Position numbers and translations under genes: made by a program. Shown piece by piece: positions 4,377 to 21,815 of a DNA stretch of 64,000 nt; the stretch's first letter is position 1, and each line of letters opens with the position of its first letter. Source of the stretch: an uncultured virus (IMG/VR IMGVR_UViG_3300044701_003393) (Duplodnaviria > Heunggongvirae > Uroviricota > Caudoviricetes); the IMG/VR virus record IMGVR_UViG_3300044701_003393. One strand, given 5' to 3'. Under the pieces are notes generated by a model, which was given only the letters and a program-made list of their open reading frames with translations, searched no databases and was not told the DNA's origin.

Positions 4377-4967
4377 ATGAGTACGTTTGCTAAAAAGGGG
4401 TGGTACTATCTTCCCAATATTATCAGCAAAGAAGAAGCATTGGAGATTAAATATAAAAACCTCTGTGGTGCAGTAAGAGAACTTGGAAGTCTTAAAGGAC
4501 ATCACGATCCAGAAAGAGGAAGAGTGTTAACTTGTTATGCTCCACCAACCTGTACTTATATTATGTGGAGAGTCAAACCAATACTTGAGGAGTTGCTTGG
4601 TGAAGAACTTCTGCCGACTTATTGGTTCTCTACGACTTACCATAAAGGTGGTTGGATGAACTGTCATACTGACCGACCTTCCTGTGAAGTCTCAGTCACA
4701 ATGAATATTTGCGGTGATGCTGCTTGGCCGATTAAACTCAAAGATTTAGAAGGTAAGAATAGAGCAGTTGTAACACCTGTAGGACATGGAGTTGCGTATC
4801 TTGGAACTCAAGTAGAGCACTGGAGAAGTCCTCTAAGAACTCACGATAATGATCGTTTTATGCAATTATTCCTACACTTTGTAAGAAAAAACGGTCAATA
4901 CGTGGATTACGCATTTGACCGTAACGATAAGTGTTATCATTTATTAAATATGACTAAACCTTATTGA
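4377..4967 (+). CDS. 2OG-Fe(II) oxygenase
   Basis: HxD motif (HTDRPSCEVS) and distal His (EHWR); upstream ATAAATA at 4351. Confidence 0.8.
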   Translation: MSTFAKKGWYYLPNIISKEEALEIKYKNLCGAVRELGSLKGHHDPERGRVLTCYAPPTCTYIMWRVKPILEELLGEELLPTYWFSTTYHKGGWMNCHTDRPSCEVSVTMNICGDAAWPIKLKDLEGKNRAVVTPVGHGVAYLGTQVEHWRSPLRTHDNDRFMQLFLHFVRKNGQYVDYAFDRNDKCYHLLNMTKPY

Positions 4968-5545: not shown

Positions 5546-6205
5546 TTATGGAACCTTAATTCCATACTTCTGTTCTATTTCTTTATCTTGCTCTTCTTTT
5601 GTTTTAAACCCTTGAACTCTCATCCAAGTTACTAAAGTATATCTCTTACCTGAAAGTACAGGTTCTACGCAGTGCTTAAACCATCTAGAAGAAGGAAAAC
5701 AAACAAGAAGTCCTGGTTCTGGTTTGATTTTGATTCTTAGATCTGGAAAAGAAAAATAACCACCCTCAAAATCATCGTTGAGAAAAAGAACCGTAGAAAG
5801 ATCCCGATCTACACTCTTCTTCCACATTGTTGTTCCATCAGGATTCGTCCAAAGTGCTTCTGCATCATAATGAGGTTTATAGTGCCCTCCTTTTTCATAG
5901 TAAAGAAGTTGAGGCATTTCACTATCACGAATCTTAAAATTATAAAAAGGATTAATAACATGATCGATGATATTCTTCATCAAATCATGAACTTGAGGAA
6001 GAATAGGAGTTATATCAGCACACTTTACATCTCTAGATGTCTTATCTACTTTATGTTCTGATTTTTTTGTAAGATTTGTTTTATCAGGATCAAATACTCC
6101 CATCTGTTCCATATCTGCTTGATTAGCAAAATCAAGCAGATATTTACAGTTTTCCTTTGTGACTACTTTTGGTTGAATTAAAATATTGGATAATAAATCA
6201 TTCAT
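5546..6205 (-). CDS. Prolyl-4-hydroxylase-like 2OG-Fe(II) oxygenase
   Basis: YKPHYD, LFLNDDFEGG, HCVEPV and KRYTLVTW motifs. Confidence 0.85.
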   Translation of the reverse strand: MNDLLSNILIQPKVVTKENCKYLLDFANQADMEQMGVFDPDKTNLTKKSEHKVDKTSRDVKCADITPILPQVHDLMKNIIDHVINPFYNFKIRDSEMPQLLYYEKGGHYKPHYDAEALWTNPDGTTMWKKSVDRDLSTVLFLNDDFEGGYFSFPDLRIKIKPEPGLLVCFPSSRWFKHCVEPVLSGKRYTLVTWMRVQGFKTKEEQDKEIEQKYGIKVP

Positions 6206-6230: not shown

Positions 6231-9029
6231 TTAGTTTGCGTTTGAGACTGCTGCTAATTGATCTCTTGCTTGAGTAAGTTTTTGTGATGGGACTGATACT
6301 GTTTCTGTAAAGAAATCTAAACGATCGATTGTAGAAACAAGAGTAGGAGTACTACCACCACCAAAATAACCATAAGAACTACTTGATGTTGCTACTAAAC
6401 TACTTTTTTCTTGAGATAACTTAGGTGTTGGAGTACTTACGGTTTCTGTAGAGAAATCTAAACGGTCAATAGTGGAAGCATTTATTGTTGCTGGCGCTAG
6501 TAGTCCACCACCAAAGTAACCATAAGAATTACTTGATGTCCCCGCTAAATTTCTTTTTGCTGCAGATAATGTACTTGATACAGGTGTTACTGTTTCTGTA
6601 GAAAAATCTAAACGGTCTATGGTACAATCAATAATAGGAGTAGCCCCACCAGCAAAGTATCCAAAAGAACTACTTGAAGTTGCTACTAAACCATTTCTTA
6701 CCTTAGATAATTTAGGTGTTGGTACTGACACTGTTTCTGTAATAAAATCTAAACGATCGATTGTAGAAACAAGAGTAGGAGTACTACCACCACCAAAATA
6801 ACCATAAGAACTACTTGATGTTGCTGATATGTTATTTCTTGCTATAGATAATTTAGGTGTTGGTACTGACACTGTTTCTGTAATAAAATCTAAACGATCG
6901 ATTGTAGAAATATTACTTAGAGTAAATCCTCCACCAAAATAACCATAAAGAGTGCTTGAAAATGCTTTAAGACCAGTTCTTGCCTGAGATAACTTAGGTC
7001 CTGGTACTGATACTGTTTCGGTAGAGAAATCTAAACGGTTTATAGTACAAACATCAGTAGGAGTACCACCACCACCCCAATAACCATAAGTGGCAGAACC
7101 AACTCTTTGAGTCCCTCTTGCTCCTGATACTGCTCCTATTTCAGATCTTGCTTGAGATAATTTAGGTCCTGGTGTTGATACTGTTTCTGTAGAAAAATCT
7201 AAACGGTCTATGGTGGAGGTGAATCCAGGTGTTCTTCCTCCACCAAAGTAACCATAAGAATTACTTGAAACTGCTCCTTTGGATTTAACTCTTATTGAAG
7301 ATAACTTAGTTGATGTTGTAGTTACTGTTTCTGTAGTAAAATCTAAACGGTCTATGGTGGAAACAGGAGTGGGAGTATAACCACCACCAAAATATCCATA
7401 AGAACTACTTGAAACTGCTCCTAAACTATTTTTTACTTGAGATAACCTAGAGGTTAGTGTTGATACTATTTCTGTTGAAAAATCTAAACGGTCGATGGTA
7501 GAAAAAAGAGTAGTGGGGGAAACACCACCACCAAAGTATCCATAAAAAGCATTTGAAGCTGATGCAAACTTATTTTTTGCGGAACTTAAATAAGATGTCG
7601 GTGTCGTTACGGTTTCTGTAGAGAAATCTAGACGGTTAATATTAGAAAAAGTAGCTCCAGTTTCTGGTCCCCCACCTGCATAATATCCATAAAAATCACT
7701 TGAAACTGCATTTACAATTGCTGCTTTAGATAACTTAGATGTTGGATATAATATTGTTTCTGATGAAAAATCTAAACGATCTATGGTGCAATAAAAAACA
7801 CTAGGAGAACTAGCACCACCGGCAAAGTATCCATAAGAACTGCTTGATGTTACATCCAAACTATATCTTGCTGGGGATATTTTAGTTTGTGGTGTAGTTA
7901 TTGTTTCTGTGGATAAATCTAAACGATCAAATGTAGTAACTGGATTAGGTCCAGCTGGAATATCACCACCACCAAAATAACCAACATTAGCACTCTCAGG
8001 CCAGTTAGTAAACTTAGGAGAACCTCTGAAGATTTGCTGACGATTGACTTGGACTCCTGTTGATTGATCTTTTGCTTGAGACAATTTTGGTGATGGAACT
8101 GATACTGTTTCTGTCGAGAAATCTAAACGATCTATCGTACAGACATAAGTAGGAGCAGTAGTACCACCACCAAAGTAACCATAAGAACTACTTGAGACTG
8201 CTGCTAAACCAGATCTTGCTTGAGATAACTTAGGTGTTGGTGTTGTGACGGTTTCTGTGGAAAAATCTAGACGATCAATGGTGCAAACTCTAATAGTACC
8301 ATCAAAACCACCACCAAAGTAACCATAAGAATTACTTGATGTTGCTTCTAAAGTACCTCTTGCTTGAGATAATTTTGGGGTTGGTACTGATACTGTTTCT
8401 GTAGAGAAATCTAAACGATCTATAGTACAAACACGAATACCAGGAGAATTAATACCACCACCAAAGTAACCATAAGAACTACTTGAGACTGCCCCTAAAC
8501 TAAATCTTGCCTGAGATAACTGATAGGATCCAGGCGTTGATACGGTTTCTGCGGAAAAATCTAAACGATCTATAGTACAAACCAATGATGTGGTTGGAGT
8601 AACACTAATATCACCACCACCAAAATAACCATAAGAACTACTTGAGACTGCTGCCAAACCAGGTTTTGATTGAGATAACTTAGATGTTGGTACTGATACT
8701 GTTTCTGTAGAAAAATCTAGGCGATCTATAGTTGAGTAAGATACCGTAGGGGGAGTTCCAACTTGACGTTCTCCTCCACAAAAATAACCATAAGAACTAT
8801 TTGATACTGCTGCTAAACCAAATCTTCCTTGAGATAACTTAGGGGTTGGAGTACTTACGGTTTCTGTAGAGAAGTCTAAACGATCAATAGTAGAAATAAA
8901 ATCACTAGTAGCAATATCACCCCCACCAAAATAACCATAAAGAAGACCAGGAATATCTAGTGTTAGTCCTTCATTAACATTTGTTAGTTGTTCTGTTCTA
9001 ACTTCTCTAAGTGAAAATATCCCAGCCAT
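6231..9029 (-). CDS. Kelch-like beta-propeller repeat protein A (18 blades, 3 x 6)
   Basis: 18 repeats of YGYFGGG-loop-TIDRLDFSTETV-PTPKLSQAR; linkers after blades 6 and 12; ends AVSNAN. Confidence 0.8.
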   Translation of the reverse strand: MAGIFSLREVRTEQLTNVNEGLTLDIPGLLYGYFGGGDIATSDFISTIDRLDFSTETVSTPTPKLSQGRFGLAAVSNSSYGYFCGGERQVGTPPTVSYSTIDRLDFSTETVSVPTSKLSQSKPGLAAVSSSSYGYFGGGDISVTPTTSLVCTIDRLDFSAETVSTPGSYQLSQARFSLGAVSSSSYGYFGGGINSPGIRVCTIDRLDFSTETVSVPTPKLSQARGTLEATSSNSYGYFGGGFDGTIRVCTIDRLDFSTETVTTPTPKLSQARSGLAAVSSSSYGYFGGGTTAPTYVCTIDRLDFSTETVSVPSPKLSQAKDQSTGVQVNRQQIFRGSPKFTNWPESANVGYFGGGDIPAGPNPVTTFDRLDLSTETITTPQTKISPARYSLDVTSSSSYGYFAGGASSPSVFYCTIDRLDFSSETILYPTSKLSKAAIVNAVSSDFYGYYAGGGPETGATFSNINRLDFSTETVTTPTSYLSSAKNKFASASNAFYGYFGGGVSPTTLFSTIDRLDFSTEIVSTLTSRLSQVKNSLGAVSSSSYGYFGGGYTPTPVSTIDRLDFTTETVTTTSTKLSSIRVKSKGAVSSNSYGYFGGGRTPGFTSTIDRLDFSTETVSTPGPKLSQARSEIGAVSGARGTQRVGSATYGYWGGGGTPTDVCTINRLDFSTETVSVPGPKLSQARTGLKAFSSTLYGYFGGGFTLSNISTIDRLDFITETVSVPTPKLSIARNNISATSSSSYGYFGGGSTPTLVSTIDRLDFITETVSVPTPKLSKVRNGLVATSSSSFGYFAGGATPIIDCTIDRLDFSTETVTPVSSTLSAAKRNLAGTSSNSYGYFGGGLLAPATINASTIDRLDFSTETVSTPTPKLSQEKSSLVATSSSSYGYFGGGSTPTLVSTIDRLDFFTETVSVPSQKLTQARDQLAAVSNAN

Positions 9030-9856
9030 TAGATTCCAAATATAGAATACTTCGGAGTTGTTTTATGCCAGAACTCCATTTCTTTATATTTATCTGTTAT
9101 ATACTTACTAAGATACTTTGAGTTATCACGATGTATCTTTTGTACCTTATTTCTCACAGTATGCATATTCTCAAGACCATAAACGACATCATTTTCGTCA
9201 AACTTTGGTCGAACATTTGAGAAATCATAAGAATACTCAGGTATTCCCAGAAACGAATGAATACGATTGAGTTCTTTTTGTGGATTACTGACTAAGTTTT
9301 CATACTCAACAAACAACAAATATTTCTGATGACCTTTACGAAATGCTTCTGAAAGTGCGTGATAAGATTGACCGATAATACCTTGAGGAGACATTAGAAA
9401 ATCACATCGATTATCATTCGTGAGTTCTAAGTTTCTTTCTATCAGTGCGTTATCAATAAAAGATAAAGTCTTACTGCGTTCGATCAGTGCAAGAAAAGAA
9501 CTCATAATGTCCCGAATGTTTCTTACAGGGCAGATGATCTTTGGTTCTGGAGTAATATAATCTTGAATGTGTTGAATCTGATTCACCCAACCTCTTGATT
9601 TATCAATAATAATCGGTTCTGGTGTATCAAAGTAATAGTTATGAGGTATTGATGATAAAACCTTATGTGCTGCTTCTGGTTTTGGGTGTGCCTTATATTG
9701 CTCTGAGTTATATAACAAATACTCCTCAGTATAATGTATCGTATCTAAAAGAGGAGAGTTTGTAGATGCGTGGATCTGTGGATTTTGATTCAGAAGTGCA
9801 GTCAGAAGTGTCGAACCAGATCTTGGAAGACCTGACATAAAGTGAAAGGTTTTCAT
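9029..9856 (-). CDS. Sulfotransferase family protein
   Basis: PAPS-binding loop GLPRSGSTLL, DKSRGW, RNIRDIMSS, YENLV. Confidence 0.85.
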   Translation of the reverse strand: MKTFHFMSGLPRSGSTLLTALLNQNPQIHASTNSPLLDTIHYTEEYLLYNSEQYKAHPKPEAAHKVLSSIPHNYYFDTPEPIIIDKSRGWVNQIQHIQDYITPEPKIICPVRNIRDIMSSFLALIERSKTLSFIDNALIERNLELTNDNRCDFLMSPQGIIGQSYHALSEAFRKGHQKYLLFVEYENLVSNPQKELNRIHSFLGIPEYSYDFSNVRPKFDENDVVYGLENMHTVRNKVQKIHRDNSKYLSKYITDKYKEMEFWHKTTPKYSIFGI

Positions 9857-9876
9857 AATATAGAGTTTTGATGTAT

Positions 9877-12684
9877 TTAGTTTGCGTTTGAGACTGCTGC
9901 TAAAGATTGTTTTTCTTGTGTGAGTTTTTGTAATGGTACTGATACTGTTTCTGTAGAGAAATCTAAACGATCTATGGTGGAATAACGAGTAGCAGGAGGA
10001 GTAAGACCACCACCAAAGTAACCATAAGAACTACTTGATGTTGCTGTTAGTCTCTCCTTTGCTAGAGATAACTTAGGTGTTGGTGTTGATACTGTTTCTG
10101 TAGAGAAATCTAAACGATCTATGGTGGAAACGACAGTAGGATTAGGAATAGTACTACCACCACCAAAGTATCCATAAGAACTACTTGAGGTTGCTGTTAA
10201 CCCTCTTCTTACTGAAGATAACTTAGATGTTGGAACTGTTATGGTTTCTGTAGTGAAATCTAACCGGTCTATAGTGGAATAACGAGTAGAGGGAGTAGGA
10301 ATGTAACCACCACCAAAATAACCATAAGAATTACTTGAGACTGCTTCTAATTGATTTTTTGCTGTCGATAACTGATAGATTCCTGGTGCTGAAACCGTTT
10401 CTGTAGAAAAATCTAAACGATCTATAGTACAAACACTAATAGTAGTAAACCCACCACCAAAATATCCATAAGAACTACTTGAGGTTGCTGTTAAACTAGT
10501 TCTTGCTTGAGATAATTTAGGTGTTGGTGTTGTTACTGTTTCTGTAGAGAAATCTAAACGATCTATGGCACATAAATTAACAGAAGCAGAAGTACCACCA
10601 CCAAAGTAACCATAAGAACTGCTTGAGGTTGCTGCTAAACCATCTCTTGCTTGAGATAACTTAGGTGTTGGTACTGATACGGTTTCTGTGGAGAAATCTA
10701 AACGATCTATTGTGGATACTGTTGTGGGACCTCCTCCACCCCAATAACCATAAGTCGCAGTACCAACTCTTTGAGTTCCGGTTCCTCCGGATACTGCTGC
10801 TAAACCTTGATTTGCTTGAGATAATTGAGGTGTTGGTGTTGATACGGTTTCTGTAGAGAAATCTAGACGGTCTATGGTAGAAAGAATACTAGGACCAGTA
10901 ATAGCACCACCACCAAAGTAACCATAAGAACTACTTGAGACTGCTGCTAAATTAGTTTTTGCTTGAGATAACTTAGGTGTTGGTACTGATACTGTTTCTG
11001 TAGAGAAATCTAAACGATCTATGATAGATGTAGTATTGGGATTATTTCCACTAGCAAAATAACCATAAGAACTATTAGAAATTGCACCAATATATCTTCT
11101 TGCTTGAGATAAATTAGGTGTTGGTACTGATACTGTTTCTGTGGAGAAATCTAGACGATCTATAGTACAAACCAAAGTAGCAGGAGGTAAATATCCACCA
11201 CCAAAGTAACCATAAGAACTGCTTGATACTGCTGCTAAACCAAATCTTGCTTGAGATAACTTAGGTGTTGGTGTTGATACTGTTTCTGTAGAGAAATCTA
11301 AACGGTTTATGGTAGAAATAGTAGACGGAGTTCCACCAGCAAAGTAACCATAAGAACTGCTTGATGCTGCTGCTAAGAAATATCTTGCTGAAGATAACTT
11401 TGGTGTTGGTACTGATACGGTTTCTGTGGAGAAATCTAAACGATCAATAGTTGTAACTTGAGTTGGAGCTGAAATATAACCACCACCAAAATAACCATAA
11501 GAACTGCTAGAAGTTGCAGATAAAGTTGTTTTTGCTTGAGATAACTTAGGTGTTGGTGTTGATACTGTTTCTGTGGAGAAATCTAAACGATTAAAAGTAG
11601 AAATAACAGAGGGAGCAGAACCACCACCAAAGTAACCAGTATTAGCACTTTCAGGCCAGTTGGTGTATATTGGAGAATTTTTTATTTTTCTTTGTCGGTT
11701 GATTTGAACTGCTGATGAAGCAGTTCTTACCGTAGATAACTTAGGTGTTGGAGTTGTTACTGTTTCTGTATAAAAATCCAAACGATCAATGGTTGAAATA
11801 AAAGTAGTAGGGGAAGTAAGACCACCACCAAAGTAACCATAAGAACTACTTGAGGTTGCTGCTAAGGCATTTCTTGCTCCAGATAACTTAGGTGTTGGTA
11901 CTGATATTGTTTCTGTAGAGAACTCTAAACGATCAATGGTAGAAACACGAGTAGTGGGGGCAGTAAGACCTCCTGCAATATAACCATAAGACCTACTTGA
12001 AGTTCCATCTATACTATTTCTTCCTGTAGATAATTTAGATGATGGTACTGATCTTGTTTCCGTGTAAAAATCCAAACGATCTATAGTAGAAAAATTATTA
12101 GTTCCATCCCAACCACCAATAAAGTATGAATAAGAATTATCTGAAACTGATGCTAAACGACTTCTTGCTTGAGATAACTTAGGTGTTGGTGTTGTTACTG
12201 TTTCCGTAGAGAAATCTAAACGGTCTATAGTGGAAAGATAAGTGCTATTAAAACCACCACCAAAGTAACCATAAGAACTATTCGAAGATGCTATCAAAGC
12301 AATTTTTTCTGCAGATAATTTGGCAGATATAACTGGTATTTGTACGGTCTCTGTAGAGAAATCTAAACGATCAATAGTAGAAAATAAAGTTAATGGAGGA
12401 ACATCATCAAGTCCACCACCCCCAAAATAACCATAAGAACTATTTGAAACTGTTCCAAAACTATTTCTTGCCCGGGATAACTTAGGTGTTGGGGTTGTTA
12501 CGGTTTCTGTAGAGAAATCTAAACGATCTATGGTACATACATTAATATTCGGAGTACCAGGAATAGCACCCCCACCAAAGTAACCATAAAGAGAAGCATA
12601 AACAGAAGTAACTTCTATTCCTGATGCTATGTTTTCAACTTGTTTGTCGTAAACACGATCTAGACCGAATATGTCTCCAGGCAT
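9877..12684 (-). CDS. Kelch-like beta-propeller repeat protein B (18 blades)
   Basis: Same architecture, linkers (TNWPESAN; GTQRVG) and AVSNAN end as protein A. Confidence 0.8.
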   Translation of the reverse strand: MPGDIFGLDRVYDKQVENIASGIEVTSVYASLYGYFGGGAIPGTPNINVCTIDRLDFSTETVTTPTPKLSRARNSFGTVSNSSYGYFGGGGLDDVPPLTLFSTIDRLDFSTETVQIPVISAKLSAEKIALIASSNSSYGYFGGGFNSTYLSTIDRLDFSTETVTTPTPKLSQARSRLASVSDNSYSYFIGGWDGTNNFSTIDRLDFYTETRSVPSSKLSTGRNSIDGTSSRSYGYIAGGLTAPTTRVSTIDRLEFSTETISVPTPKLSGARNALAATSSSSYGYFGGGLTSPTTFISTIDRLDFYTETVTTPTPKLSTVRTASSAVQINRQRKIKNSPIYTNWPESANTGYFGGGSAPSVISTFNRLDFSTETVSTPTPKLSQAKTTLSATSSSSYGYFGGGYISAPTQVTTIDRLDFSTETVSVPTPKLSSARYFLAAASSSSYGYFAGGTPSTISTINRLDFSTETVSTPTPKLSQARFGLAAVSSSSYGYFGGGYLPPATLVCTIDRLDFSTETVSVPTPNLSQARRYIGAISNSSYGYFASGNNPNTTSIIDRLDFSTETVSVPTPKLSQAKTNLAAVSSSSYGYFGGGAITGPSILSTIDRLDFSTETVSTPTPQLSQANQGLAAVSGGTGTQRVGTATYGYWGGGGPTTVSTIDRLDFSTETVSVPTPKLSQARDGLAATSSSSYGYFGGGTSASVNLCAIDRLDFSTETVTTPTPKLSQARTSLTATSSSSYGYFGGGFTTISVCTIDRLDFSTETVSAPGIYQLSTAKNQLEAVSSNSYGYFGGGYIPTPSTRYSTIDRLDFTTETITVPTSKLSSVRRGLTATSSSSYGYFGGGSTIPNPTVVSTIDRLDFSTETVSTPTPKLSLAKERLTATSSSSYGYFGGGLTPPATRYSTIDRLDFSTETVSVPLQKLTQEKQSLAAVSNAN

Positions 12685-12690
12685 TTGTTT

Positions 12691-13551
12691 TTATGCTTCC
12701 TGTTTGAGTTGTTCGTTGAATAATGAAACTCCCTCAGTTCCTGTTGCTGGATCTAAAATCTTCTGTTCTTCTTGCTGTTTTCCTTCAAGAACATTATACA
12801 TTCCACTAATTTCTTCAATACCTTTTGCAACATGATCTTGAAGTGCATTCAGGAATGACATAGGATTCGTAGGATCCCCAAATGTTCCCTTCGTTCTATT
12901 GACATCATCAGGAAGAACGGTAGGAGCACTTGCTCTTCTCATAGAACGAATATTACCAGCATTTACACCAGTCTTTGCAGCAAGTAAATCATCCAGAGAC
13001 TGATTCGCAAGTCTTCTTTCCCAATAGTTTGGTTGATCTTCATCATATTGTTCTTTACTTACTAGTTTTCCACCATTTAATTCAATTAGTCTTGAAATCA
13101 ACTTATCAAAGAACTCAAGTTCATCAACTGCTGCTTGGAAACCTTGATTAAGTCCGTGAATGAGACGATGGAAATTGAACTCATCAATATCATACCAACA
13201 AAGGTCTTCTCCACCTCTACCATTCTTCCACCAAATTGGTTGAGATTTATCTTTTCCATCCCACTTAAAATGAAATTCTCTAGCAATTCTTTTTGCTTCT
13301 TGAATGCCTTGAAGAAGTCCTTCTGCAACACTCTTACGGTTGATAATTGCTGCTTTAAATGCCGAAGGAAGAGTAAAGTTGTCGTGAATAATGAATTTTT
13401 CAATCTGAAAATTGGAACGACTACCAGCAAGTTCTTTCTCACTCTCCTCCCACTTCATGCATTCATTATAAACCTTAAACATAAATTCATTGCTATCATC
13501 TAAAACATCATCTGCTTTAGCAAGTGCAATATCCTTATAAGCTTCAGACAT
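12691..13551 (-). CDS. Hypothetical alpha-helical/coiled-coil protein
   Basis: Likely start MSEAYK at 13551 with GAGGA upstream; no catalytic motif recognised. Confidence 0.7.
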   Translation of the reverse strand: MSEAYKDIALAKADDVLDDSNEFMFKVYNECMKWEESEKELAGSRSNFQIEKFIIHDNFTLPSAFKAAIINRKSVAEGLLQGIQEAKRIAREFHFKWDGKDKSQPIWWKNGRGGEDLCWYDIDEFNFHRLIHGLNQGFQAAVDELEFFDKLISRLIELNGGKLVSKEQYDEDQPNYWERRLANQSLDDLLAAKTGVNAGNIRSMRRASAPTVLPDDVNRTKGTFGDPTNPMSFLNALQDHVAKGIEEISGMYNVLEGKQQEEQKILDPATGTEGVSLFNEQLKQEA

Positions 13552-13585
13552 AGAATCCTCTTTAAACAATTCAGTTCATTTCTTT

Positions 13586-16048
13586 TTATTTAGGTAATAT
13601 ATTTTGACGAACGAAGTGATAATCACCATCACAGTTGTGTCCGCCATTATATCCAATATGATGGAAGAGTGCAAATCCAATTGAATTCATAAATTGTTTT
13701 ACATCTTCCAACATTGGTGCTCCAGTGCTAAACTCTTTATTTTGAACCTCAAGAATCAAGTGATTACAATTCTCAAGAACTGAAGAAGAACCTTTGAGAA
13801 TATTCACTTCTGCACCTTGAACGTCAATCTTAATCAGATCTGGTTTCATCCATCCTTTCTCATTTACAAGTTCATCAAGAGTTTTTGTTTGACGAATTGT
13901 TTTTCTTAGATGTTCGTTATGAAAAACTCTTGCATCATCATAATTTTCATTCACAGGATACATCGTACAAAGTCCAGGGCACATTGGATTTTCCCAAAAT
14001 TCAATCTGTTCTTTTCTATCACTTAGAAGTTCAATCGCATAGTCAACATTATATCTTGGATAAGTATTTGCAAACTCAGAGCAAGCATCGACACAATAAA
14101 TCTTTGCATCTCTCCAAACATTTGATGCTAACTTATACCAAGAAAGATAGTTGGAACCAATATCATAAATGACCTTTGGATGAAAGTTATTCCAATACTT
14201 CAATCTAAAAAGATAATCAACATGATCATCATACATCTTATCATATTTAATTTGCCAGTCATAAAACTCTTGCAAGTCACTGGTCTTCTTATCTAATAGA
14301 GTATTCATAGGTTTCTTTGAATTAATTTCAATTGCAATCTTAAAAGGTCCATATTGCTTATTAATATCTATAATGCGACTGTGATAGTCATTTACATCCA
14401 ACTCCCCCTTTACCAAATATTCTCCGATCTTTTCTCCATTTACTTTAGTAAAAATGCATTGAATAATTGGATATGAGTTTTCATAGTTATGATAAATTTT
14501 TTGAATGAGTTGAATTTCATCAGAGTGACATTTAATAGATTCGTGGATTTGATTCTCTCCTCCTATTCCATCATAAACAGGATCTCTCAAGTAGAAAAAC
14601 TTGACGGGAACTTGAAGTTCATAAAGTAGAATAGAAATAAAATAATCATCATGTAAGAATACATCATCTAAAGATTTAATATTAGTATTCTTAGAAAGAA
14701 AGTTAATATAATGTTCTTCAAAATTAGATGAATTTAATTTTTCTAATATCTTACGATTAAAGAAGAAAGAACCAACACCTTGAAGTTTGGGAACAGAATT
14801 ACTCAGAAAGTGAAGATAATTTCCTTTTAAAGTTTCAGTTCCAGTAGACCATGCACACTCACCATCAACTTCAAAAGATTTCAGATAACATTCGATTAAT
14901 CTTTCATCATAGACAACATCATCATCACATACAATCACATTTGAGTTTGGATACATCTCTAGTGATTTCAATGCTCCATAAATTTTAGTTGCTGGCCCAT
15001 AATCCATATCAACATAAAGTAAATCAACTAGTCCTGAATATTTTTTGCAGATATTTTCTATCTCTTCTGGTTGATATGAAAACTTATGATATTGCTTTGG
15101 GATAGTAACAATAATTTTATTTGGTCTTAGTGTTTGAGATAAGAATGATCGGATAATCATTTCAAGATTATTAAACCTTGAGGGAATGATTGAAAATGAA
15201 ACATTGATAGGATGGTCGGTATAAGTTTCTTGAGGAAAAATGTTGATAATTAATTTACGAAGATCTTCTGGATACTTAGTAAATGAATAATCAATAAAGT
15301 CATCACCAAACTCTTCACCTCTTCTTAAAAAATGTTTCTTACTTTTGATAAGATCTTCGATATTCTGTTCGTTCTTATATTCATCGCGGTTGTATTCCTG
15401 ATGTGCGTAACACTCTAACTTATGTTTAATTCTTTCAACTCCACCAAAGTATGTAAAATGCCATCCTGCATTTGGAATAGGAGTTAGTGAGAACCGATTG
15501 CTTCTAAAATAATCACAACCTTTTTTGATTGCATTTGAAACGGTAGAAAATACTGTACCAGGCCAGTAATTCGGACAATAAGACTTAAAGTTATAGTAGA
15601 ACATCTCACAAGATGCTACATTTTCAACAAAGTTATTATTAAGTAATGATGTAATGATTTCCTTTCTTGGAATTTCATCAACATCACTCACCATAAAAAA
15701 GTCATCTAAAGAAAAATGAGAAAGATGTTGAGTAATCAAATCTCTTTGTTCTCTTTCTAACTTCCAATAGTCATTATCATAGTTCTTAACCTCTCCTTCA
15801 ATCACAACTTCAGGAAGTTTAAATTTTGAGATATCAGGTTCATACTTTAATCTAATGATTTTCCTTTGAATTTCTTTCGGAATTTCATTCCAAATTTCAT
15901 CTAGGTAATAAGGTTTTGGTTTTCCCGAATGTGTGTAATTACTTTCTACAATGATAAAGTGATCTACAATATCATTCAAATAAGACAAACGAAGTTTGAG
16001 AACATCAAACTCGTTGAAGAACATAAAACTATCAATGACTTTTTTCAT
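13586..16048 (-). CDS. Fusion: GT17-like glycosyltransferase + GT-A domain + FkbM methyltransferase
   Basis: FFNEFDVLKLRL, SDVDEIP and GWHFTY (GT17-like); DYGPATK and CDDD (GT-A); YDIGS and IKIDVQGAE (FkbM). Confidence 0.8.
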   Translation of the reverse strand: MKKVIDSFMFFNEFDVLKLRLSYLNDIVDHFIIVESNYTHSGKPKPYYLDEIWNEIPKEIQRKIIRLKYEPDISKFKLPEVVIEGEVKNYDNDYWKLEREQRDLITQHLSHFSLDDFFMVSDVDEIPRKEIITSLLNNNFVENVASCEMFYYNFKSYCPNYWPGTVFSTVSNAIKKGCDYFRSNRFSLTPIPNAGWHFTYFGGVERIKHKLECYAHQEYNRDEYKNEQNIEDLIKSKKHFLRRGEEFGDDFIDYSFTKYPEDLRKLIINIFPQETYTDHPINVSFSIIPSRFNNLEMIIRSFLSQTLRPNKIIVTIPKQYHKFSYQPEEIENICKKYSGLVDLLYVDMDYGPATKIYGALKSLEMYPNSNVIVCDDDVVYDERLIECYLKSFEVDGECAWSTGTETLKGNYLHFLSNSVPKLQGVGSFFFNRKILEKLNSSNFEEHYINFLSKNTNIKSLDDVFLHDDYFISILLYELQVPVKFFYLRDPVYDGIGGENQIHESIKCHSDEIQLIQKIYHNYENSYPIIQCIFTKVNGEKIGEYLVKGELDVNDYHSRIIDINKQYGPFKIAIEINSKKPMNTLLDKKTSDLQEFYDWQIKYDKMYDDHVDYLFRLKYWNNFHPKVIYDIGSNYLSWYKLASNVWRDAKIYCVDACSEFANTYPRYNVDYAIELLSDRKEQIEFWENPMCPGLCTMYPVNENYDDARVFHNEHLRKTIRQTKTLDELVNEKGWMKPDLIKIDVQGAEVNILKGSSSVLENCNHLILEVQNKEFSTGAPMLEDVKQFMNSIGFALFHHIGYNGGHNCDGDYHFVRQNILPK

Positions 16049-16053
16049 AAAAA

Positions 16054-17730
16054 TTATTTCGATCTAAAGAAGTGGTAATCTCCGTCAGCACAACTTGGAT
16101 TTTGTACGAAGTGTGAAATAAGAATATATCCTTTATTCTCTAAGTATTGAATAACCTCTTGATTAAGAGGGGCATCTTTCATATACTGCTTATTTTGCAA
16201 TTCTAATATCAGATGATTACAATATTCAAGAGTTCTTTCTGCTCCTTTGAGAACATCCAATTCGCATCCTTGAATATCCATTTTAATTAAATCCGGAAGT
16301 TTCCAATTTCTTTCTGCAACTACTGCATCTAAAGTTTTTGTTCTAACTGTTCTTTCTCTGTAAAAAGGACTGGTCTTAAATGCTAGATTGTGTGGAAACT
16401 CTTGGAAATTCATTTCATAATATGAGGAACTTCCACTATCCTTAACATTCTCATAGAAAGTAACTTCTTTTTCCCTATCACTTAGAACTTCAATTGCATA
16501 GTTTATTCTATTCTTTTGGTATAACGAATGATATCCATCAAATCCATCAATATGATAGAACTCTGCTTCATTCCACACACAAGAAGCAAACTTAGACCAA
16601 TGAAGAACTGCCGAACCAATGTCATAAACCACTTTTGGTTCAAAATTATGATGATACTTTAGTCTGTAAAGATAGTCAATGTGTTGTGCTGGAACCATAT
16701 TGATACTTGAAGACCACTCATAATATTCCTCTAAGGTCTTCATTCTTCCTTCAAAGAGGTCTATCTTTTGAGTCAGACTATTGATTTCATTTTCCCATAA
16801 CTTTGCAACTCTTCTCCAATTATAAGTTTCTATTGCAAACTTTGAGATTGCTGAGGATGCTTGTTCGTATTCATCTCTAGCAACATCAAAGAAATGAAGT
16901 GCTCTTATGATTTCTTCTGCAAAGTTCTGGTGGAATGTGTCATCAGTAATCCAACCTCTGGGAGTATTTTGCCCTGACATTGGAATATACTTACCCATTC
17001 CGTTTGATGTTTCTGGAAGTGCTCCCATATCTGTAGTGATAGGAAAGCATCCGCAACTCATTGCTTCTGCAAGAGAAACACAGAAGGTTTCTTCCCACAC
17101 ATTTGAATGAATATAAAAAGCAGCATCTTGAATATGAAGTAGTAGTTCTTCACGGTCAATACAAGGTGAATACTCCACACCTGGAAGTGCTTGAAGTTCC
17201 TTGTAGATAGGAATGAATGGTGAAGGTTCTAGTCCCTTATCAGTTGTGATAGTCTCATTTTCTCCTTCTCCTGGTTGAATTGCACCATACAGAGACATTG
17301 AAGAAAACACTTTGAGTTTTGCATCTGGATGATGTTTGATGACTTCTTTCCAGATGGGTACTAATGGTGTGATACCCTTATGTGGTGCGGAGAAAAAGAT
17401 ACAGGTTTTTGATTTTGGTTTTCCTGATGGTCGGAACATATCATCCACACCATTTGGAATGACCGTCAGTTTCTCTGCGGGTGCTCGGTTATACTTGATG
17501 TATTGCTCTCGTTCCCAGTTTGATACACAGACAATTTTATCAATCTTGTCTATGTGCTGTGGAAGGTCTCGGTGTCCTGCTTGGTCGCAATTATCGTGTG
17601 CCCAGATGACCTTATATTGCTTATCTGATTGTATGATTTCGTGTGTGGTTCTTCTTACATCTACATTTTCAGGAAATGTATAATATTGCGAAAGATAATA
17701 AAAAGAACTTTCAGTTGCTCCAGACTTCAT
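16054..17730 (-). CDS. GT-B (GT4-like) glycosyltransferase + FkbM methyltransferase fusion
   Basis: VIPNGVD, ETFCVSLAEAMSCG, GALPE; C-terminal YDIGS and IKMDIQGCE. Confidence 0.85.
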   Translation of the reverse strand: MKSGATESSFYYLSQYYTFPENVDVRRTTHEIIQSDKQYKVIWAHDNCDQAGHRDLPQHIDKIDKIVCVSNWEREQYIKYNRAPAEKLTVIPNGVDDMFRPSGKPKSKTCIFFSAPHKGITPLVPIWKEVIKHHPDAKLKVFSSMSLYGAIQPGEGENETITTDKGLEPSPFIPIYKELQALPGVEYSPCIDREELLLHIQDAAFYIHSNVWEETFCVSLAEAMSCGCFPITTDMGALPETSNGMGKYIPMSGQNTPRGWITDDTFHQNFAEEIIRALHFFDVARDEYEQASSAISKFAIETYNWRRVAKLWENEINSLTQKIDLFEGRMKTLEEYYEWSSSINMVPAQHIDYLYRLKYHHNFEPKVVYDIGSAVLHWSKFASCVWNEAEFYHIDGFDGYHSLYQKNRINYAIEVLSDREKEVTFYENVKDSGSSSYYEMNFQEFPHNLAFKTSPFYRERTVRTKTLDAVVAERNWKLPDLIKMDIQGCELDVLKGAERTLEYCNHLILELQNKQYMKDAPLNQEVIQYLENKGYILISHFVQNPSCADGDYHFFRSK

Positions 17731-17755
17731 ATCAAAATGATGTAGTTAAAGTTAT

Positions 17756-20572
17756 TTAGTTTGCGTTTGAGACTGCAGCTGGAGCAGATCTTTCTGAAGT
17801 GAGTTTTTGTGATGGAACTGATACGGTTTCTGTGGAGAAATCTAAACGATCAATTGTTGAATAAACGGCAGGAGTAGGAGCAAAACCACCACCAAAGTAA
17901 CCATAAGAACTGCTTGAGGTTGCTGATAAACTTTCTCTTGCTTGAGATAACTTAGGTGTTGGTACTGATACTGTTTCTGTGGAGAAATCTAAACGATCAA
18001 TGGTGCAAACAACAGTAGTTGGGCTAGTAGCACCACCACCAAAGTAACCATAAAAACTACTTGAGGTTGCTGATAAACTTTCTCTTGCTTGAGATAACTT
18101 AGGTGTTGGTACTGATACTGTTTCTGTGGAGAAATCTAAACGATCTATAGTAGAAACACGACCTGGAAAAAAAGCATAACCACCACCAAAGTAACCATAA
18201 GAACTACTTGCAGTTGCTGCCACTCCCCTTTTCAAATCAGATAACTTAGGTGTTGGGACTGATACTGTTTCTATTGAGAAATCTAAACGATCTATAGTAG
18301 AAACAGCAGTAGGAATAGCACCACCACCAAAGTAACCATAAGAACTACTTGAGGTTGCTGCTAATTGTTGTCTTGTTTGAGATAACTTAGGTGTTGGGAC
18401 TGATACTGTTTCTGTAGAGAAATCTAAACGATCTATAGTGGAACTGGGAGTAAGACCACCACCACCAAAGTAACCATAAGAACTACTTGAGGTTGCTGCT
18501 AATTGTTGTCTTGCTTGAGATAACTTAGGAGATGGTGTTGTTACTGTTTCTGTAGAGAAATCTAAACGGTTTATGGTAGAAACAGCAGTAGGAATAGCAC
18601 CACCACCATAATAACCATAAGTCGCAGAACCAACTCTACGAGTTCCTATTGCTCCTGATACTCCAGTTCCACCATATCTAAAACTAGATAATGTAGATGT
18701 TAGATCTCCTATTGTTTCCGTTGAGAAATCTAAACGATTTATACTGGAAGTATCGGGAGGAGTATTACCACCAGCAAAATAACCATAAGAACTACTTGAA
18801 GCTCCCGATGTTGAGGTTCTAGATGTAGTGAACCTAGATCCTAACAAATTTGCAGTTTCGGTAGAAAAATCAAAACGTTCTATAGTAGATAGTGCTCCTG
18901 GTCCAATAAAATTACCTCCACCACCAAAATAACCATAATAAGAATTTGAAACAGTTGTGGAATCGGCTCTTATTGAAGAAAGATTAGATCCTAATGTTGC
19001 CACAGTTTCTGTAGAAAAATCTAAACGATCTATACCAAGTTGATAAATATCCGATGGAACAGCATAAATTGAACCACCAGCAAAGTAACCATAAGAACTA
19101 GTTGATACAGTATTATATCCACTTCTATCACCAGCCAACTTAGGTGTTGGTGTTGTTATTGTTTCTGTAGAGAAATCTAATCGATCTATAGTGGAAACCC
19201 TAATATTAGGACTAGGTAAAGTAATACCAGCACAAAAGTAACCATAAGAACTACTTGATACTGAATTCAAAAACCTTCTTGATATAGATAATGAACTACC
19301 GAGTCTTATTGTATTTTCTGTAGAAAAATCTAATCGTTCAGTAGTAGAACGAATAAAAGGAGAAGGAAGAGGTGAGGTTGCTCCTCCACCAAAATAACCA
19401 TACTGATTATTTGACAATGATGTCAAATGATATCTTGCTTCAGTTAATTTAGGTGCTGGTGTTGCCACAGTTTCTGTAGAAAAATCTAATCGATTAAAAC
19501 TACTTAATACTATAACTCCAGGAGGAGTTGCTCCTCCACCAAAGTAACCAACATTAGCACTCTCAGGCCAGTTAGTGAACTTAGGAGATGACTGGAAGAT
19601 TGGATTGCGGTTGACTTGGACTGCTGTTGAAGCCGCTCTTCTTTGAGATAACTGAGGTCCTGGTACTGATACGGTTTCTGTAGAGAAATCTAGACGGTCA
19701 ATAGTGCAAACAAAAACAAGAGGAGCATAAAAACCACCACCAAAGTATCCAAAAAAATTACTCGAAGTTCCTGCTAAAGCATATCTTGCTTGAGGTAACT
19801 TAGGTGCTGGTGTTGATAGGGTTTCTGTGGAGAAATCTAAACGATTTATAGTACAGACATATCCAAGAGGAGTAACACCACCACCAAAATAACCATAAAG
19901 ATCATTTTTTACTGTCCCAGGATAAACCGTAGATGTTGGTAATTGTTGGGGAGGAACTGAAAATGTATCTATGGAAAAATCTAAACGATCAATAGTACAA
20001 TAATACGTAACAAATCCTGGAGAAGTTCCACCAGCAAAGTAACCATAAGAACTACTTGAGGTTGCTGCTAAATATCCTCGCGAAATAGATATATTTGGAA
20101 GTGGTGTTGTCGTTTCAGTATCAAAATCTAAACGATCTACAGTGGAGGATCCAGCACCTCCACCAAAGTAACCATAAGAACTGCTTGAAGTCGCTGCTAA
20201 ATAACCTCTTGATTGAGATAACTTAGGTGTTGGTGTTGATAGGGTTTCTGAGGAGAAATCTAGACGATCTATGGTGCAAACACTTGTTGATGGTGAAGTA
20301 AGTCCGCCACCAAAGTAACCATAAGAACTACTTGAGGTTGCTGCTACATATGATTTTGCTACCGGTAGATCGATCGATGATGTTACAGTTTCTGTCGTGA
20401 AATCTAAACGATCTATAGTGGAATAAAATATACTAGCAGTAGGAGTAGGAGGAATAAAATATCCACCACCAAAGTAACCATAAAAAAGACCCTCAATATC
20501 CAGTTGCAATCCAGGATCAGTATTTTCGATCTGTTTTTTATAGACTTTTTTAAGACCGAATACTCCTGCCAT
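17756..20572 (-). CDS. Kelch-like beta-propeller repeat protein C (18 blades)
   Basis: Start re-set to MAGVFGL (20572) by similarity to the MAGIFSL/MPGDIFGL starts of the paralogs; same 6+6+6 layout. Confidence 0.8.
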   Translation of the reverse strand: MAGVFGLKKVYKKQIENTDPGLQLDIEGLFYGYFGGGYFIPPTPTASIFYSTIDRLDFTTETVTSSIDLPVAKSYVAATSSSSYGYFGGGLTSPSTSVCTIDRLDFSSETLSTPTPKLSQSRGYLAATSSSSYGYFGGGAGSSTVDRLDFDTETTTPLPNISISRGYLAATSSSSYGYFAGGTSPGFVTYYCTIDRLDFSIDTFSVPPQQLPTSTVYPGTVKNDLYGYFGGGVTPLGYVCTINRLDFSTETLSTPAPKLPQARYALAGTSSNFFGYFGGGFYAPLVFVCTIDRLDFSTETVSVPGPQLSQRRAASTAVQVNRNPIFQSSPKFTNWPESANVGYFGGGATPPGVIVLSSFNRLDFSTETVATPAPKLTEARYHLTSLSNNQYGYFGGGATSPLPSPFIRSTTERLDFSTENTIRLGSSLSISRRFLNSVSSSSYGYFCAGITLPSPNIRVSTIDRLDFSTETITTPTPKLAGDRSGYNTVSTSSYGYFAGGSIYAVPSDIYQLGIDRLDFSTETVATLGSNLSSIRADSTTVSNSYYGYFGGGGNFIGPGALSTIERFDFSTETANLLGSRFTTSRTSTSGASSSSYGYFAGGNTPPDTSSINRLDFSTETIGDLTSTLSSFRYGGTGVSGAIGTRRVGSATYGYYGGGAIPTAVSTINRLDFSTETVTTPSPKLSQARQQLAATSSSSYGYFGGGGLTPSSTIDRLDFSTETVSVPTPKLSQTRQQLAATSSSSYGYFGGGAIPTAVSTIDRLDFSIETVSVPTPKLSDLKRGVAATASSSYGYFGGGYAFFPGRVSTIDRLDFSTETVSVPTPKLSQARESLSATSSSFYGYFGGGATSPTTVVCTIDRLDFSTETVSVPTPKLSQARESLSATSSSSYGYFGGGFAPTPAVYSTIDRLDFSTETVSVPSQKLTSERSAPAAVSNAN

Positions 20573-20577
20573 TTGAT

Positions 20578-21240
20578 TTACTCTTCTTGATAAACATGAG
20601 AACCAACATGACACAGACGAATACTTGTATCTAACCAAGATTTGTATCCTACACTTGATGCTCTTTCAAAGAATGAAAAATCTTCAGGTAGAAAAGACAT
20701 ATCTTTTTTCATTTCAAGAAAGTAATGATATGAGTTATGATATTCCTGTTCTGTTGGTGGATAACTAGAATTATTTAGTGCAGGATAATACTTTAATTCT
20801 TCACCATAACGATTTTGAATTTCCCGAAATACTTGCCGTTTAATACAACAAAATCCAAATCCAATATTTTCAATCTGAACTAATCCTTCTTCTGCAACTG
20901 GAGGAGATGAGATATTATAATTGTAACGAAGTGGAATACCCTTCATTGGATATGCACCACAAACAATATCCTTATCTGCAAGAATAACCTTCAGGGCATC
21001 TTCTGGTGTAAATCCAACATCAGCATCAATAAACAAAATCTTCTCATACTCGGTATTATTCATATAGAAGTTAGCAATTCTTGATCTTGCTTTCGTAACA
21101 AGACTTTCATTTGCCATAGTCAAAAGACCGTGATCGATTCCGTTTTTATTCAGTGCCTTTCCTAAATTGAATAATCCCTTTGCGGTTTTATCACTTACCA
21201 TTCCCCCATAACAGGGCATTGCGATTAATACTGAAGTCAT
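20578..21240 (-). CDS. GT-A fold glycosyltransferase-like protein
   Basis: IAMPCYGG, ESLVTKAR, FIDAD (DxD), EDFSF, HVG. Confidence 0.75.
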   Translation of the reverse strand: MTSVLIAMPCYGGMVSDKTAKGLFNLGKALNKNGIDHGLLTMANESLVTKARSRIANFYMNNTEYEKILFIDADVGFTPEDALKVILADKDIVCGAYPMKGIPLRYNYNISSPPVAEEGLVQIENIGFGFCCIKRQVFREIQNRYGEELKYYPALNNSSYPPTEQEYHNSYHYFLEMKKDMSFLPEDFSFFERASSVGYKSWLDTSIRLCHVGSHVYQEE

Positions 21241-21815
21241 ACAAGTAACTCTACATTAAATGAGATTGAAATACGATTTTCGTTAATTGGATTTGGATTC
21301 ACAAAATGAGGTAACCAAGAAGGAAATAATACCAACTCTCCAACCTTTGGAGTGTGATTATGATAGTTTGTATCTCTTAAACAACTACCTTGAAAGTCCA
21401 TAATCTTTGAAGGTCTTGGATCTTCAAAGGTAATACCAGGAGCACCTTCTGGAAGTGCAACATAATAAACGGCACTCATCCAACCACTGGGATGAACGTG
21501 TGTGAAATTATAACCACCTTGAGGATTGACATTTCCCCACATTGCACGAATGACGAACTCTGGTTTGTTGGTAGAAAGGTCTGCAATGATTGATTGAACG
21601 ATTGTAGAAGACTTTTCTAACAATGGTTTAAAGGTCTCATTCTGCCAAAGTGTAATATCACTCTGCCATCCATTACGATTACTTTTAATTTCTCCAGGAC
21701 TTTCTTTTGAAAGTTTTAAAAGTTCTTGTTTATAACTTTCGTTTTCTTTTTGATCGTAAATATCAACAAAGTACAAATCAGTCGGGAAAAGACCACGACA
21801 TTTAATATTAAACAT
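21237..21815 (-). CDS. 2OG-Fe(II) oxygenase (HxH type, TIGR02466-like)
   Basis: SNRNGWQS, HVHP, LFPSWLPHFV, RISISFN. Confidence 0.85.
   Translation of the reverse strand: MFNIKCRGLFPTDLYFVDIYDQKENESYKQELLKLSKESPGEIKSNRNGWQSDITLWQNETFKPLLEKSSTIVQSIIADLSTNKPEFVIRAMWGNVNPQGGYNFTHVHPSGWMSAVYYVALPEGAPGITFEDPRPSKIMDFQGSCLRDTNYHNHTPKVGELVLFPSWLPHFVNPNPINENRISISFNVELLV

Follow-up and report, generated by a model that had tools for sequence, protein, structure and literature searches.

The question raised by a 64,000-nucleotide stretch of an uncultured virus of the class Caudoviricetes (IMG/VR record IMGVR_UViG_3300044701_003393; hereinafter the window, with positions counted from its first letter) is how a phage comes to encode 54 protein repeats with conserved frameworks and hypervariable loops that consist largely of NNY codons, i.e., codons with a pyrimidine (Y) in the third position. 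The repeats are distributed among three paralogous genes on the minus strand: gene A (6231..9029, 932 amino acids (aa)), gene B (9877..12684, 935 aa) and gene C (17756..20572, 938 aa from the ATG at 20572; the open reading frame (ORF) reaches a TTG at 20638). In the variable regions of diversity-generating retroelements (DGRs), AAY codons of the template yield NNY codons, and an earlier note on this DNA proposed that the arrays were produced either by a DGR-like process or by slippage and recombination. The explanation that we consider probable is different: the three genes would encode germline Kelch binding arrays diversified by selection, codon-unit insertions and deletions, and recombination, with the NNY codons of the loops being a codon memory of the ancestral blade.

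Each of the three proteins contains 18 repeats of about 48 aa, the number given by the earlier note and recovered by repeat analysis, of the form SSSSYGYFGGG-[loop]-STIDRLDFSTETVSVPTPKLSQARxxLAAV. In all three genes, a 20-aa linker (..NRQ..TNWPESAN) precedes blade 7 and the sequence GTQRVGSAT precedes blade 13; therefore, each protein consists of 6+6+6 blades. In gene A, an N-terminal segment of about 29 aa is followed by the first propeller (blades 1-6, 8019..8942), the second propeller (blades 7-12, 7095..7988, with blade 7 coming after the linker that includes TNWPESAN) and the third propeller (blades 13-18, residues 647-932, 6234..7091), all on the minus strand; gene B, likewise, encodes three propellers. 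Profile searches identify gene A as a member of Pfam family PF24681 (E-value 1.5e-22, 80.4 bits with a cut-off of 50) and of PHROG 19111 (E-value 8e-257), gene B as a member of PF24681 (94.7 bits, cut-off 50), and gene C as a match to Kelch_3 (32 bits, cut-off 22). The YGYFGGG motif is present in 53 of the 54 blades; the Tyr/Trp pair typical of Kelch repeats is replaced by Y/F, and the conserved W was not seen.

An AlphaFold2 prediction for the third propeller of gene A, based on a 49-row alignment of single propeller units, yields a closed six-bladed propeller with four antiparallel strands per blade (predicted local distance difference test (pLDDT) score 92.9; predicted template modelling score 0.90). 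A model of the whole gene A protein from a 13-row alignment was unusable (pLDDT 43.7), and the single-propeller fold was used instead. A Foldseek comparison of the predicted structure with Keap1, KLHL12, KLHL20 and the designed protein SAKe6 gives template modelling (TM) scores of 0.89-0.92 and root-mean-square deviations of 1.6-2.0 at 14-21% sequence identity. The likeness to these Kelch propellers extends to the six four-stranded blades, the GG doublet at the end of strand B and a C-terminal strand A that closes the propeller: the folded unit opens with strand B (YGYFG) and closes with strand A (LAAVS), and the Keap1 propeller is also closed by its C-terminal strand, according to the available sections of PMC12314335. 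In the same sections, the ligands of Keap1 are described as binding to a face built by the D-A and B-C loops. Given the strand order A-B-loop-C-D, the hypervariable B-C loop and the two D-A residues that follow QAR would therefore share one face. Thus, the structure prediction places the loops where the earlier note had expected them, on the ligand-type face of a Kelch propeller (TM about 0.9), and the agreement between the predicted fold and the Keap1 topology supports the view that they form a diversified array on one propeller face, equivalent to the ligand face of Keap1.

Unlike the cellular Kelch proteins, the phage proteins lack BTB and BACK domains, carry three propellers in tandem per chain in each of three genes, and consist of blades that are far more similar to one another, with hypervariable loops. 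Six-bladed Kelch propellers are found also in proteins of jumbo phages (Pectobacterium phage CBB and phiPA3-like phages), which are structural neighbours in BFVD, but these are single propellers, and tandem arrays, triplicate paralogs and hypervariable loops are unreported there. In relatives of the window phage, the complete genes contain 4-28 blades by motif count, most of them at or near 12, 18 or 24, and carry two, three or four propellers. Three conserved N-terminal types, namely MAGIFSLREVRTEQ.., M.GDVFGL.RVY.. and MAGVFGLKKVYKKQ.., recur across phages; the N-terminus of gene C, MAGVFGLKKVYKKQ, agrees with the relatives that start at the ATG corresponding to position 20572.

The loops that follow GGG are 4-14 aa long, come in 10 different lengths and are distinct in 52 of the 54 blades, in accord with the earlier description of a loop that differs in sequence and length in nearly every blade. 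Under the loop definition of that description, loops composed exclusively of NNY codons account for 10/18 in gene A and 8/18 in gene B, identical to the hand counts made then, and for 5/18 in gene C; K, E, Q, M and W, also reported to be rare, take up 6 of 470 loop codons. The share of NNY codons is 82.5% in the loops (463 codons), compared with 52.5% in the framework and 55.0% in the background (30,666 codons from 110 other ORFs). In an amino-acid-matched test that parsed 53 of the 54 loops, 295 of the 370 loop codons for nine degenerate amino acids end in Y, against 217 predicted from genome usage (z = 8.6) and 161 from framework usage (z = 15). The excess of Y-ending codons in the loops, on which the earlier note had staked its claim, is therefore real, given that the matched genome usage is clearly exceeded. 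Glycine is the exception in the window loops (13 GGA and 9 GGT codons); the family as a whole shows the opposite preference (124 GGT and 41 GGA).

Across the family, 64 distinct genes contribute 818 loops, of which 693 are distinct. The fraction of degenerate loop codons with a Y in the third position (hereinafter Y3) is 0.80-0.96 in the nearest clade, 0.64-0.72 in several intermediate lineages and 0.42-0.60 in the most distant ones; loops made exclusively of NNY codons account for 173 of the 381 distinct loops in the clade versus 4 of 204 outside it. In the clade loops, the ratio of K+E+Q to N+D+H+K+E+Q is about 0.22, not below the purine-ending share of the four-fold degenerate codons (0.14). 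The two D-A residues after QAR are highly variable (3.4-3.7 bits), as had been noticed, but the accompanying impression that they are often encoded by NNY codons does not hold beyond the genome level: their degenerate codons end in Y in 10/18 and 22/25 cases in the window, and at frequencies of 0.62 and 0.69 in the clade, which is approximately the genome level. This pair lies between codons of which just 0-4% end in Y, and 10-17% of the residues in these positions (15-17% in the clade) are K, E, Q, M or W.

The excess over the amino-acid-matched genome usage and the sharp difference between the clade and the distant lineages in the number of all-NNY loops are the observations expected if second-order selection held the loops in NNY space, where point mutations reach 15 amino acids but neither stops nor K/E/Q/M/W. 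Under this explanation, selection for evolvability, or else some unrecognised bias in repair or mutation, would actively keep the loops NNY, as an RT-free, germline counterpart of a DGR variable region and of the AAY design of DGR template codons (RT, reverse transcriptase), with the frameworks serving as recombination handles. Each mutation in position 1 or 2 would then give one of 15 non-stop, mostly uncharged residues, and frameworks alike at synonymous sites would serve the exchange of blades between co-infecting phages. The D-A residues fit poorly, being hypervariable but neither NNY beyond the genome level nor poor in K/E/Q/M/W, and the distant lineages are equally hypervariable with a genome-like Y3 of 0.45-0.6 in the loops.

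The codons around the loop bear directly on this issue. Codon choice in the framework is fixed by position, e.g., arginine is encoded by CGT in 49 of 54 blades in the DRLDF segment and by AGA in 29 of 30 in QAR, which agrees with the earlier statement that the frameworks are alike even at synonymous sites. One stretch of the blade is T-ending (AGT AGT TCT TAT GGT TAC TTT GGT GGT GGT, loop, TCT ACT ATA GAT CGT TTA GAT TTC TCT), and the rest is A-ending (ACA GAA ACA GTA TCA ACA CCA ACA CCT AAG TTA TCT CAA GCA AGA .. .. TTA GCA GCA). The framework adjacent to the loop had been described as A-ending; this description is incorrect because both SSS-YGYFGGG before the loop and ST.DR.DFS after it are T-ending. 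Counts of Y-ending codons at four-fold degenerate sites are 255/316 for the loops, 373/439 for the flanking half-blade (Fisher p = 0.14 for this pair), 224/726 for the other half-blade and 7299/12941 for the genome, and the departure from the genome corresponds to an odds ratio of 4.4 for the flanking invariant codons and 3.2 for the loops. Thus, the Y-ending bias is common to the loop and the flanking framework and is not loop-specific. The two-half pattern, including TAT-GGT-TAC for Y-G-Y, was found in 11 of the 11 lineages examined. Inside the loops, the conserved scaffold codons (P, V and the final C/S) are 0.90-0.98 Y-ending, and the most variable positions 0.81-0.90; that the scaffold is at least as Y-ending as the hypervariable codons is the opposite of what is expected from a process that writes NNY codons while diversifying, and both this and the bias shared with the invariant flanks argue against the maintenance of loops in NNY space.

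Several further observations pertain to the two halves. The T-ending half comprises strand B, the loop and strand C, and the A-ending half comprises strand D, the D-A loop and strand A. Residues with obligate Y-ending codons (Y, F, D) gather in the T-ending half, and those with obligate purine-ending codons (E, K, Q) in the A-ending half. No ORF of 100 aa or longer that could constrain synonymous sites was detected in the other frames of genes A, B and C. A context rich in T, P and S was considered as the cause of the T-ending codons and rejected: the T, P, S, A and V codons of such contexts in other genes are Y-ending at frequencies of only 0.55, 0.52, 0.69, 0.40 and 0.65, respectively.

The T-ending codons could, alternatively, reflect a translational preference that becomes visible where the nucleotide-level constraint on the framework is absent. 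The most Y3-biased genes of the contig, which encode a gp32-like single-stranded DNA-binding protein (SSB), psbA, a porin-like protein and an nrdB-like protein (Y3 of 0.68-0.79), indeed share the codons GCT, CCT, ACT, GTT, GGT and CGT with the loops. However, no such bias is seen in structural genes of this cluster (0.46 for the tail tube, 0.55-0.62 for the fibres, with 0.56 for the fibre of 2020 aa, and 0.40-0.56 for the baseplate genes), the Kelch genes themselves are A-ending in half of every blade, and the distant lineages show no bias. We regard a translational cause as distinctly unlikely.

The DGR version of the proposal invites comparison with established DGR targets such as Mtd of the Bordetella phage and the phage tentaclins. 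The likeness consists in the receptor-binding context in a phage and in variable residues that are largely NNY, with few K/E/Q/M/W and no stops. The differences are that neither an RT nor a template repeat accompanies the arrays in the records searched, that the sequences are stable across samples, and that variation resides in 54 short loops of differing length across Kelch blades rather than in a single C-terminal region of the C-type-lectin or Ig type. A search for the RT family PF00078, which was positive in 4 of 14 reference genomes used as controls, detected no match in any of 7 records, namely the 115-kb contig that contains the window, the complete genome of Synechococcus phage S-SKS1, a 219-kb relative that is rated 100% complete and has Y3 of 93% in the loops, and four partial relatives. 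The earlier note had suggested a search of the genome or host for an RT together with a non-coding copy of a blade; a template was not found either. Searches of the 115-kb contig with gene A (blastn and tblastn) match only genes A, B and C, and when the complete 219-kb relative was searched with a profile, 8 propeller units were identified, all within its three genes, and no extra copy.

The sequences are stable as well. Another assembly agrees with positions 29-22684 of the window (22,656 nt) at 100% identity, a region that spans all three Kelch genes, and 37 more pairs of genes taken from different loci match at 100% identity along 1.6-4.7 kb. In three near-identical pairs, the loops account for 0/2, 0/4 and 5/7 of the differences, i.e., for 5/13 in total, all in one pair, and three of these five are in third positions. 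An attempt to follow population variation in four public runs yielded exact-match pieces but heavy cross-mapping between blades and related phages, and no conclusion was drawn from it. Targeted, codon-phase-aware hypermutation during infection, by a DGR encoded elsewhere or by a mechanism that does not involve an RT, could be invoked given the resemblance of NNY-only loops to the DGR variable regions that AAY templates give rise to, and given that the contig is only 58% complete. The complete relative with NNY-rich loops and no RT, the missing template and the identity of genes across assemblies all speak against it, as does the distribution of the differences in near-identical pairs; furthermore, 54 loops of 10 lengths would require many templates, and adenine is the commonest base in loop position 1 (0.29). 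Accordingly, the DGR-like process of the earlier note is disfavoured, and hypermutation in any form appears highly improbable.

Differences were counted by codon position in same-length loops and in the flanking framework, which is a crude proxy and not a recombination-aware dN/dS estimate. Among the blades of the window, the differences in positions 1, 2 and 3 are 0.554, 0.543 and 0.352 for the loops and 0.122, 0.141 and 0.288 for the flanking framework; loop positions 1 and 2 thus differ about four times as much as those of the framework, and position 3 differs about equally (0.35 vs 0.29). In the lineage designated L017, where the blades are near-identical, the corresponding values are 0.430, 0.439 and 0.114 for the loops and 0.062, 0.033 and 0.120 for the framework; in L010, the third-position values are 0.203 and 0.144, respectively. 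Over 17 lineages, the ratio of position 1/2 to position 3 differences in the loops ranges from 1.1 to 3.8 (1.56 in the window), and in the framework, positions 1 and 2 lie below position 3 by a factor of 2-4. Best-match loop pairs from different lineages contain 282, 254 and 174 differences in positions 1, 2 and 3, respectively, numbers that are biased by the identity filter and serve as a rough indication only. Thus, the third positions of the loops change at roughly the framework (near-neutral) rate, and positions 1 and 2 appear to be driven apart. That loop third positions diverge about as much as those of the framework is another argument against active maintenance of the NNY state, an explanation that we consider unlikely.

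The blades also show signs of recombination. In the closest relatives, the flanking genes are mostly 74-95% identical at the amino acid level, with four-fold differences of 0.22-0.51, and the Kelch genes are only 63-72% identical. Loops with the same index in related phages are unrelated in sequence and length, and only 0-3 of 18 blades have their best framework match in a blade of equal index, i.e., there is no positional orthology. Among the window loops, 6 of 52 have a same-length match with at least 85% nucleotide identity in other lineages, compared with a rate of 0.002 for codon-shuffled loops. Two B-type genes from separate metagenome contigs (L005:7418-9922 and L006:2740-5538) are identical except that one of them lacks exactly two blades in frame (98 aa), a difference that could result either from unequal recombination or from assembly collapse. 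The number of adjacent identical codons is 152 versus 122 +/- 9 in shuffles; this value, the two-blade deletion and the lack of positional orthology lend weak support to the slippage and recombination origin that had been named as the alternative to a DGR.

Within a genome, four-fold differences between frameworks range from 0.05 (L017) to 0.32 (the window) and are as low as 0.05-0.14 in L017, L018, L010 and L034; between the window and other lineages, they amount to 0.30-0.42. For instance, L010, L034 and L008 show 0.14, 0.12 and 0.18 within the genome versus 0.33-0.38 to the window. The blades of the window are as different within the genome (0.32) as they are from those of L021 (0.31). Four-fold differences between non-orthologous blades of the window and of L021 amount to 0.25-0.26, compared with 0.22-0.44 for orthologous flanking genes, so the blades are more alike at synonymous sites than their age predicts. 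Taken together, the loop diversity, the absence of blade orthology, the deletion and the homogenisation suggest recombination through the frameworks combined with diversification of the loops.

A similar combination is known in the WD40 repeats encoded by het-d and het-e of Podospora, which, as described in the accessible part of PMC11761791, are near-identical units of a beta-propeller sensor, vary in number and undergo concerted evolution by recombination, with hypervariable sites under diversifying selection. The phage family resembles these fungal NOD-like receptors in the variation of blade number, in the homogenisation seen in several lineages and in the faster change of loop positions 1 and 2 compared with position 3. 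It differs from them in consisting of Kelch and not WD40 repeats, in the viral structural-gene context as opposed to that of an intracellular immune receptor, in having variable-length loops instead of four fixed positions, and, in the case of the window, in blades whose differences within the genome are not smaller than those between phages (0.32 vs 0.31).

A side observation concerns the octamer GNTGGTGG, which occurs 65 times in the window compared with 3.75 expected. Forty of these copies fall on the coding strand of the three Kelch genes and lie just 5' of the hypervariable loops because F/A-G-G-G is encoded by TTT/GCT GGT GGT GGT. The octamer matches a Chi-like consensus; a role for it in recombination would be pure speculation.

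Each gene thus encodes a short conserved N-terminal segment and three six-bladed Kelch propellers in a row, and in the predicted structure the B-C loop and the two D-A residues line one face of each propeller, making 54 different surface patches per phage. Under the reading that we favour, this diversity, stable across assemblies, would be germline-encoded and would arise by three routes, namely amino-acid-changing substitutions in codon positions 1 and 2 under diversifying selection, insertions and deletions of codon units, and recombination between conserved frameworks, by which blades are shuffled, deleted and homogenised. Selection appears to be the driver of the loop diversity. The ancestral blade would have had T-ending codons through strand B, the loop and strand C, and A-ending codons in the remaining half, and the third positions of the loops would have drifted about neutrally, with positions 1 and 2 being driven apart. 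The rarity of K/E/Q/M/W follows, given that NNY codons stay NNY under changes in positions 1 and 2.

Several points weigh against this reading. The population data, 24 public runs with parts of the phage, are all assembled contigs, the best of which covers 0.42 of the sampled words, and assemblies hide rare variants. In three groups of lineages (L010, L017 and L024), the loops are more Y-ending than their flanks (0.94-1.00 vs 0.87-0.89), as would be expected if the NNY state were maintained. Across 13 lineages, the correlation between loop codons and framework synonymous divergence is weak, with Spearman rho of -0.18 for T in the third position and -0.40 for Y3, neither significant; therefore, a simple erosion clock is not demonstrated, and this comparison neither supports nor excludes the memory model. 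The unclear clock also counts in favour of maintenance. Position-wise differences stand in for a codon model, so that the proposed selection on the loops builds on a crude proxy. RNA structure, tried as the cause of the T-ending and A-ending halves of the ancestral blade, does not account for them, with z of -0.16 for 861 nt of gene A and +0.54 for the neighbouring sulfotransferase gene. Finally, the binding function, virion location and modification of the Kelch proteins discussed below are deduced from genomic context.

The Kelch genes are encoded inside a tail-fibre/baseplate module and form an island with genes for modification enzymes, all on the minus strand. A sulfotransferase (9029..9856; PF13469, E-value 1e-19) lies between genes A and B. 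Between genes B and C are a conserved ORF (12691..13569, with an ATG at 13551) that is 72-92% identical at the amino acid level in relatives and has no match in Pfam or PHROG; a fusion of a glycosyltransferase family 17 (GT17)-like domain with an FkbM methyltransferase (13586..16048; PF04724, E-value 1.3e-21, and PF05050, E-value 9.6e-13); and a fusion of a GT4/GT1-type glycosyltransferase with an FkbM methyltransferase (16054..17730; PF05050, PF00534 and PF13439). The whole island is flanked by two 2-oxoglutarate (2OG)-Fe(II) oxygenases, one immediately downstream of gene A (5546..6205; PF13640, E-value 3.6e-16) and the other upstream of gene C (21237..21815; PF13759, E-value 1.6e-25). The surroundings include a collagen-repeat protein, tail-fibre proteins (one of 2020 aa), fibre-assembly chaperones (PF16778 and PF13884) and baseplate genes. 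Adjoining the 2020-aa tail-fibre gene is a minus-strand gene (31489-32121) with a match to a Mom-like DNA modification PHROG (E-value 1e-29) and weaker HNH/homing-endonuclease matches, and a plus-strand gene (4377-4964) that matches a PHROG annotated as ferrochelatase (E-value 5.5e-54) sits amid the minus-strand fibre and chaperone genes.

This context suggests that the Kelch proteins are most likely tail-fibre-associated virion proteins that bind the host surface via their loops, by analogy with CBB_552, a Kelch protein of phage CBB that was found in virions by mass spectrometry (PMC5259590, as reported in its available sections). The hydroxylases, glycosyltransferase-methyltransferases and sulfotransferase may modify the Kelch proteins first. 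For bacterial and phage collagen-like or tail-collar proteins encoded beside dioxygenases and sulfotransferases, hydroxylation followed by sulfation has been proposed by Iyer et al. (PMC2938197, in the portion available). T4-like cyanophages and pelagimyophages possess a hypervariable 'host recognition cluster', with tail fibres and glycosyltransferases in the structural module (PMC7029224, available portion), and the island described here is similar in being hypervariable and in combining fibres with glycosyltransferases. The difference is that in the available portion of PMC7029224 neither Kelch nor propeller occurs, and the glycosyltransferases are ascribed to modification of the host surface. 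A literature search, mostly below the full-text level, retrieved no published description of these tandem Kelch arrays.

The window is part of a viral contig of 115,333 bases with a CheckV completeness of 58%. This contig encodes psbA, the gp32-like SSB, transaldolase and PTOX, and therefore belongs to a cyanophage with T4-like modules; parts of it are present in runs labelled freshwater metagenome. When a phage collection was queried with gene A, gene B and the intervening gene, the sole match was Synechococcus phage S-SKS1 (Llyrvirus, 208 kb), with 75% nucleotide identity across 25% of the query and about 50% identity at the protein level. The Kelch region of S-SKS1 (HQ633071.1) occupies 201807-208004 and 12-1133, i.e., runs across the ends of the linear record, and comprises 11 profile matches over several short open frames, some with stops, so that the deposited sequence may contain frameshifts, sequencing errors or decayed copies. 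The most Y3-biased gene of the contig (0.79) lies beyond the window, at 76880-78352 of the contig, and encodes a 490-aa protein that, judged by eye from its signal-like N-terminus and beta-rich C-terminal part, looks like a cyanobacterial outer-membrane porin; if truly a porin, it would be an unusual host-like gene for a phage.

Among the relatives, the sulfotransferase is 83-91% identical at the amino acid level in the four nearest and 75-76% identical in two more. The order of genes in the island varies: it is C - GT4 - GT17 - orf - B - sulfotransferase - A - 2OG in the window and sulfotransferase - A - GT4 - GT17 - orf - B - 2OG in the close relative L007; L021 lacks the GT17 fusion, and its C gene has 12 blades. 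In a survey of viral contigs, 227 of 240 pattern matches encode relatives of the Kelch proteins, and 57 loci were retained.

For the cyanophage lineage with these arrays, public viral contigs thus contain at least 227 related stretches, and the 54 surface patches per phage constitute a large, uncharacterised candidate repertoire for host recognition. Where the ancestral codons are T-ending, strong selection on the residues of the loops would suffice to produce their NNY appearance. The NNY-only signature, which is usually taken as the footprint of a DGR, can arise without a retroelement, a caution for screens that seek diversity generators from sequence alone.

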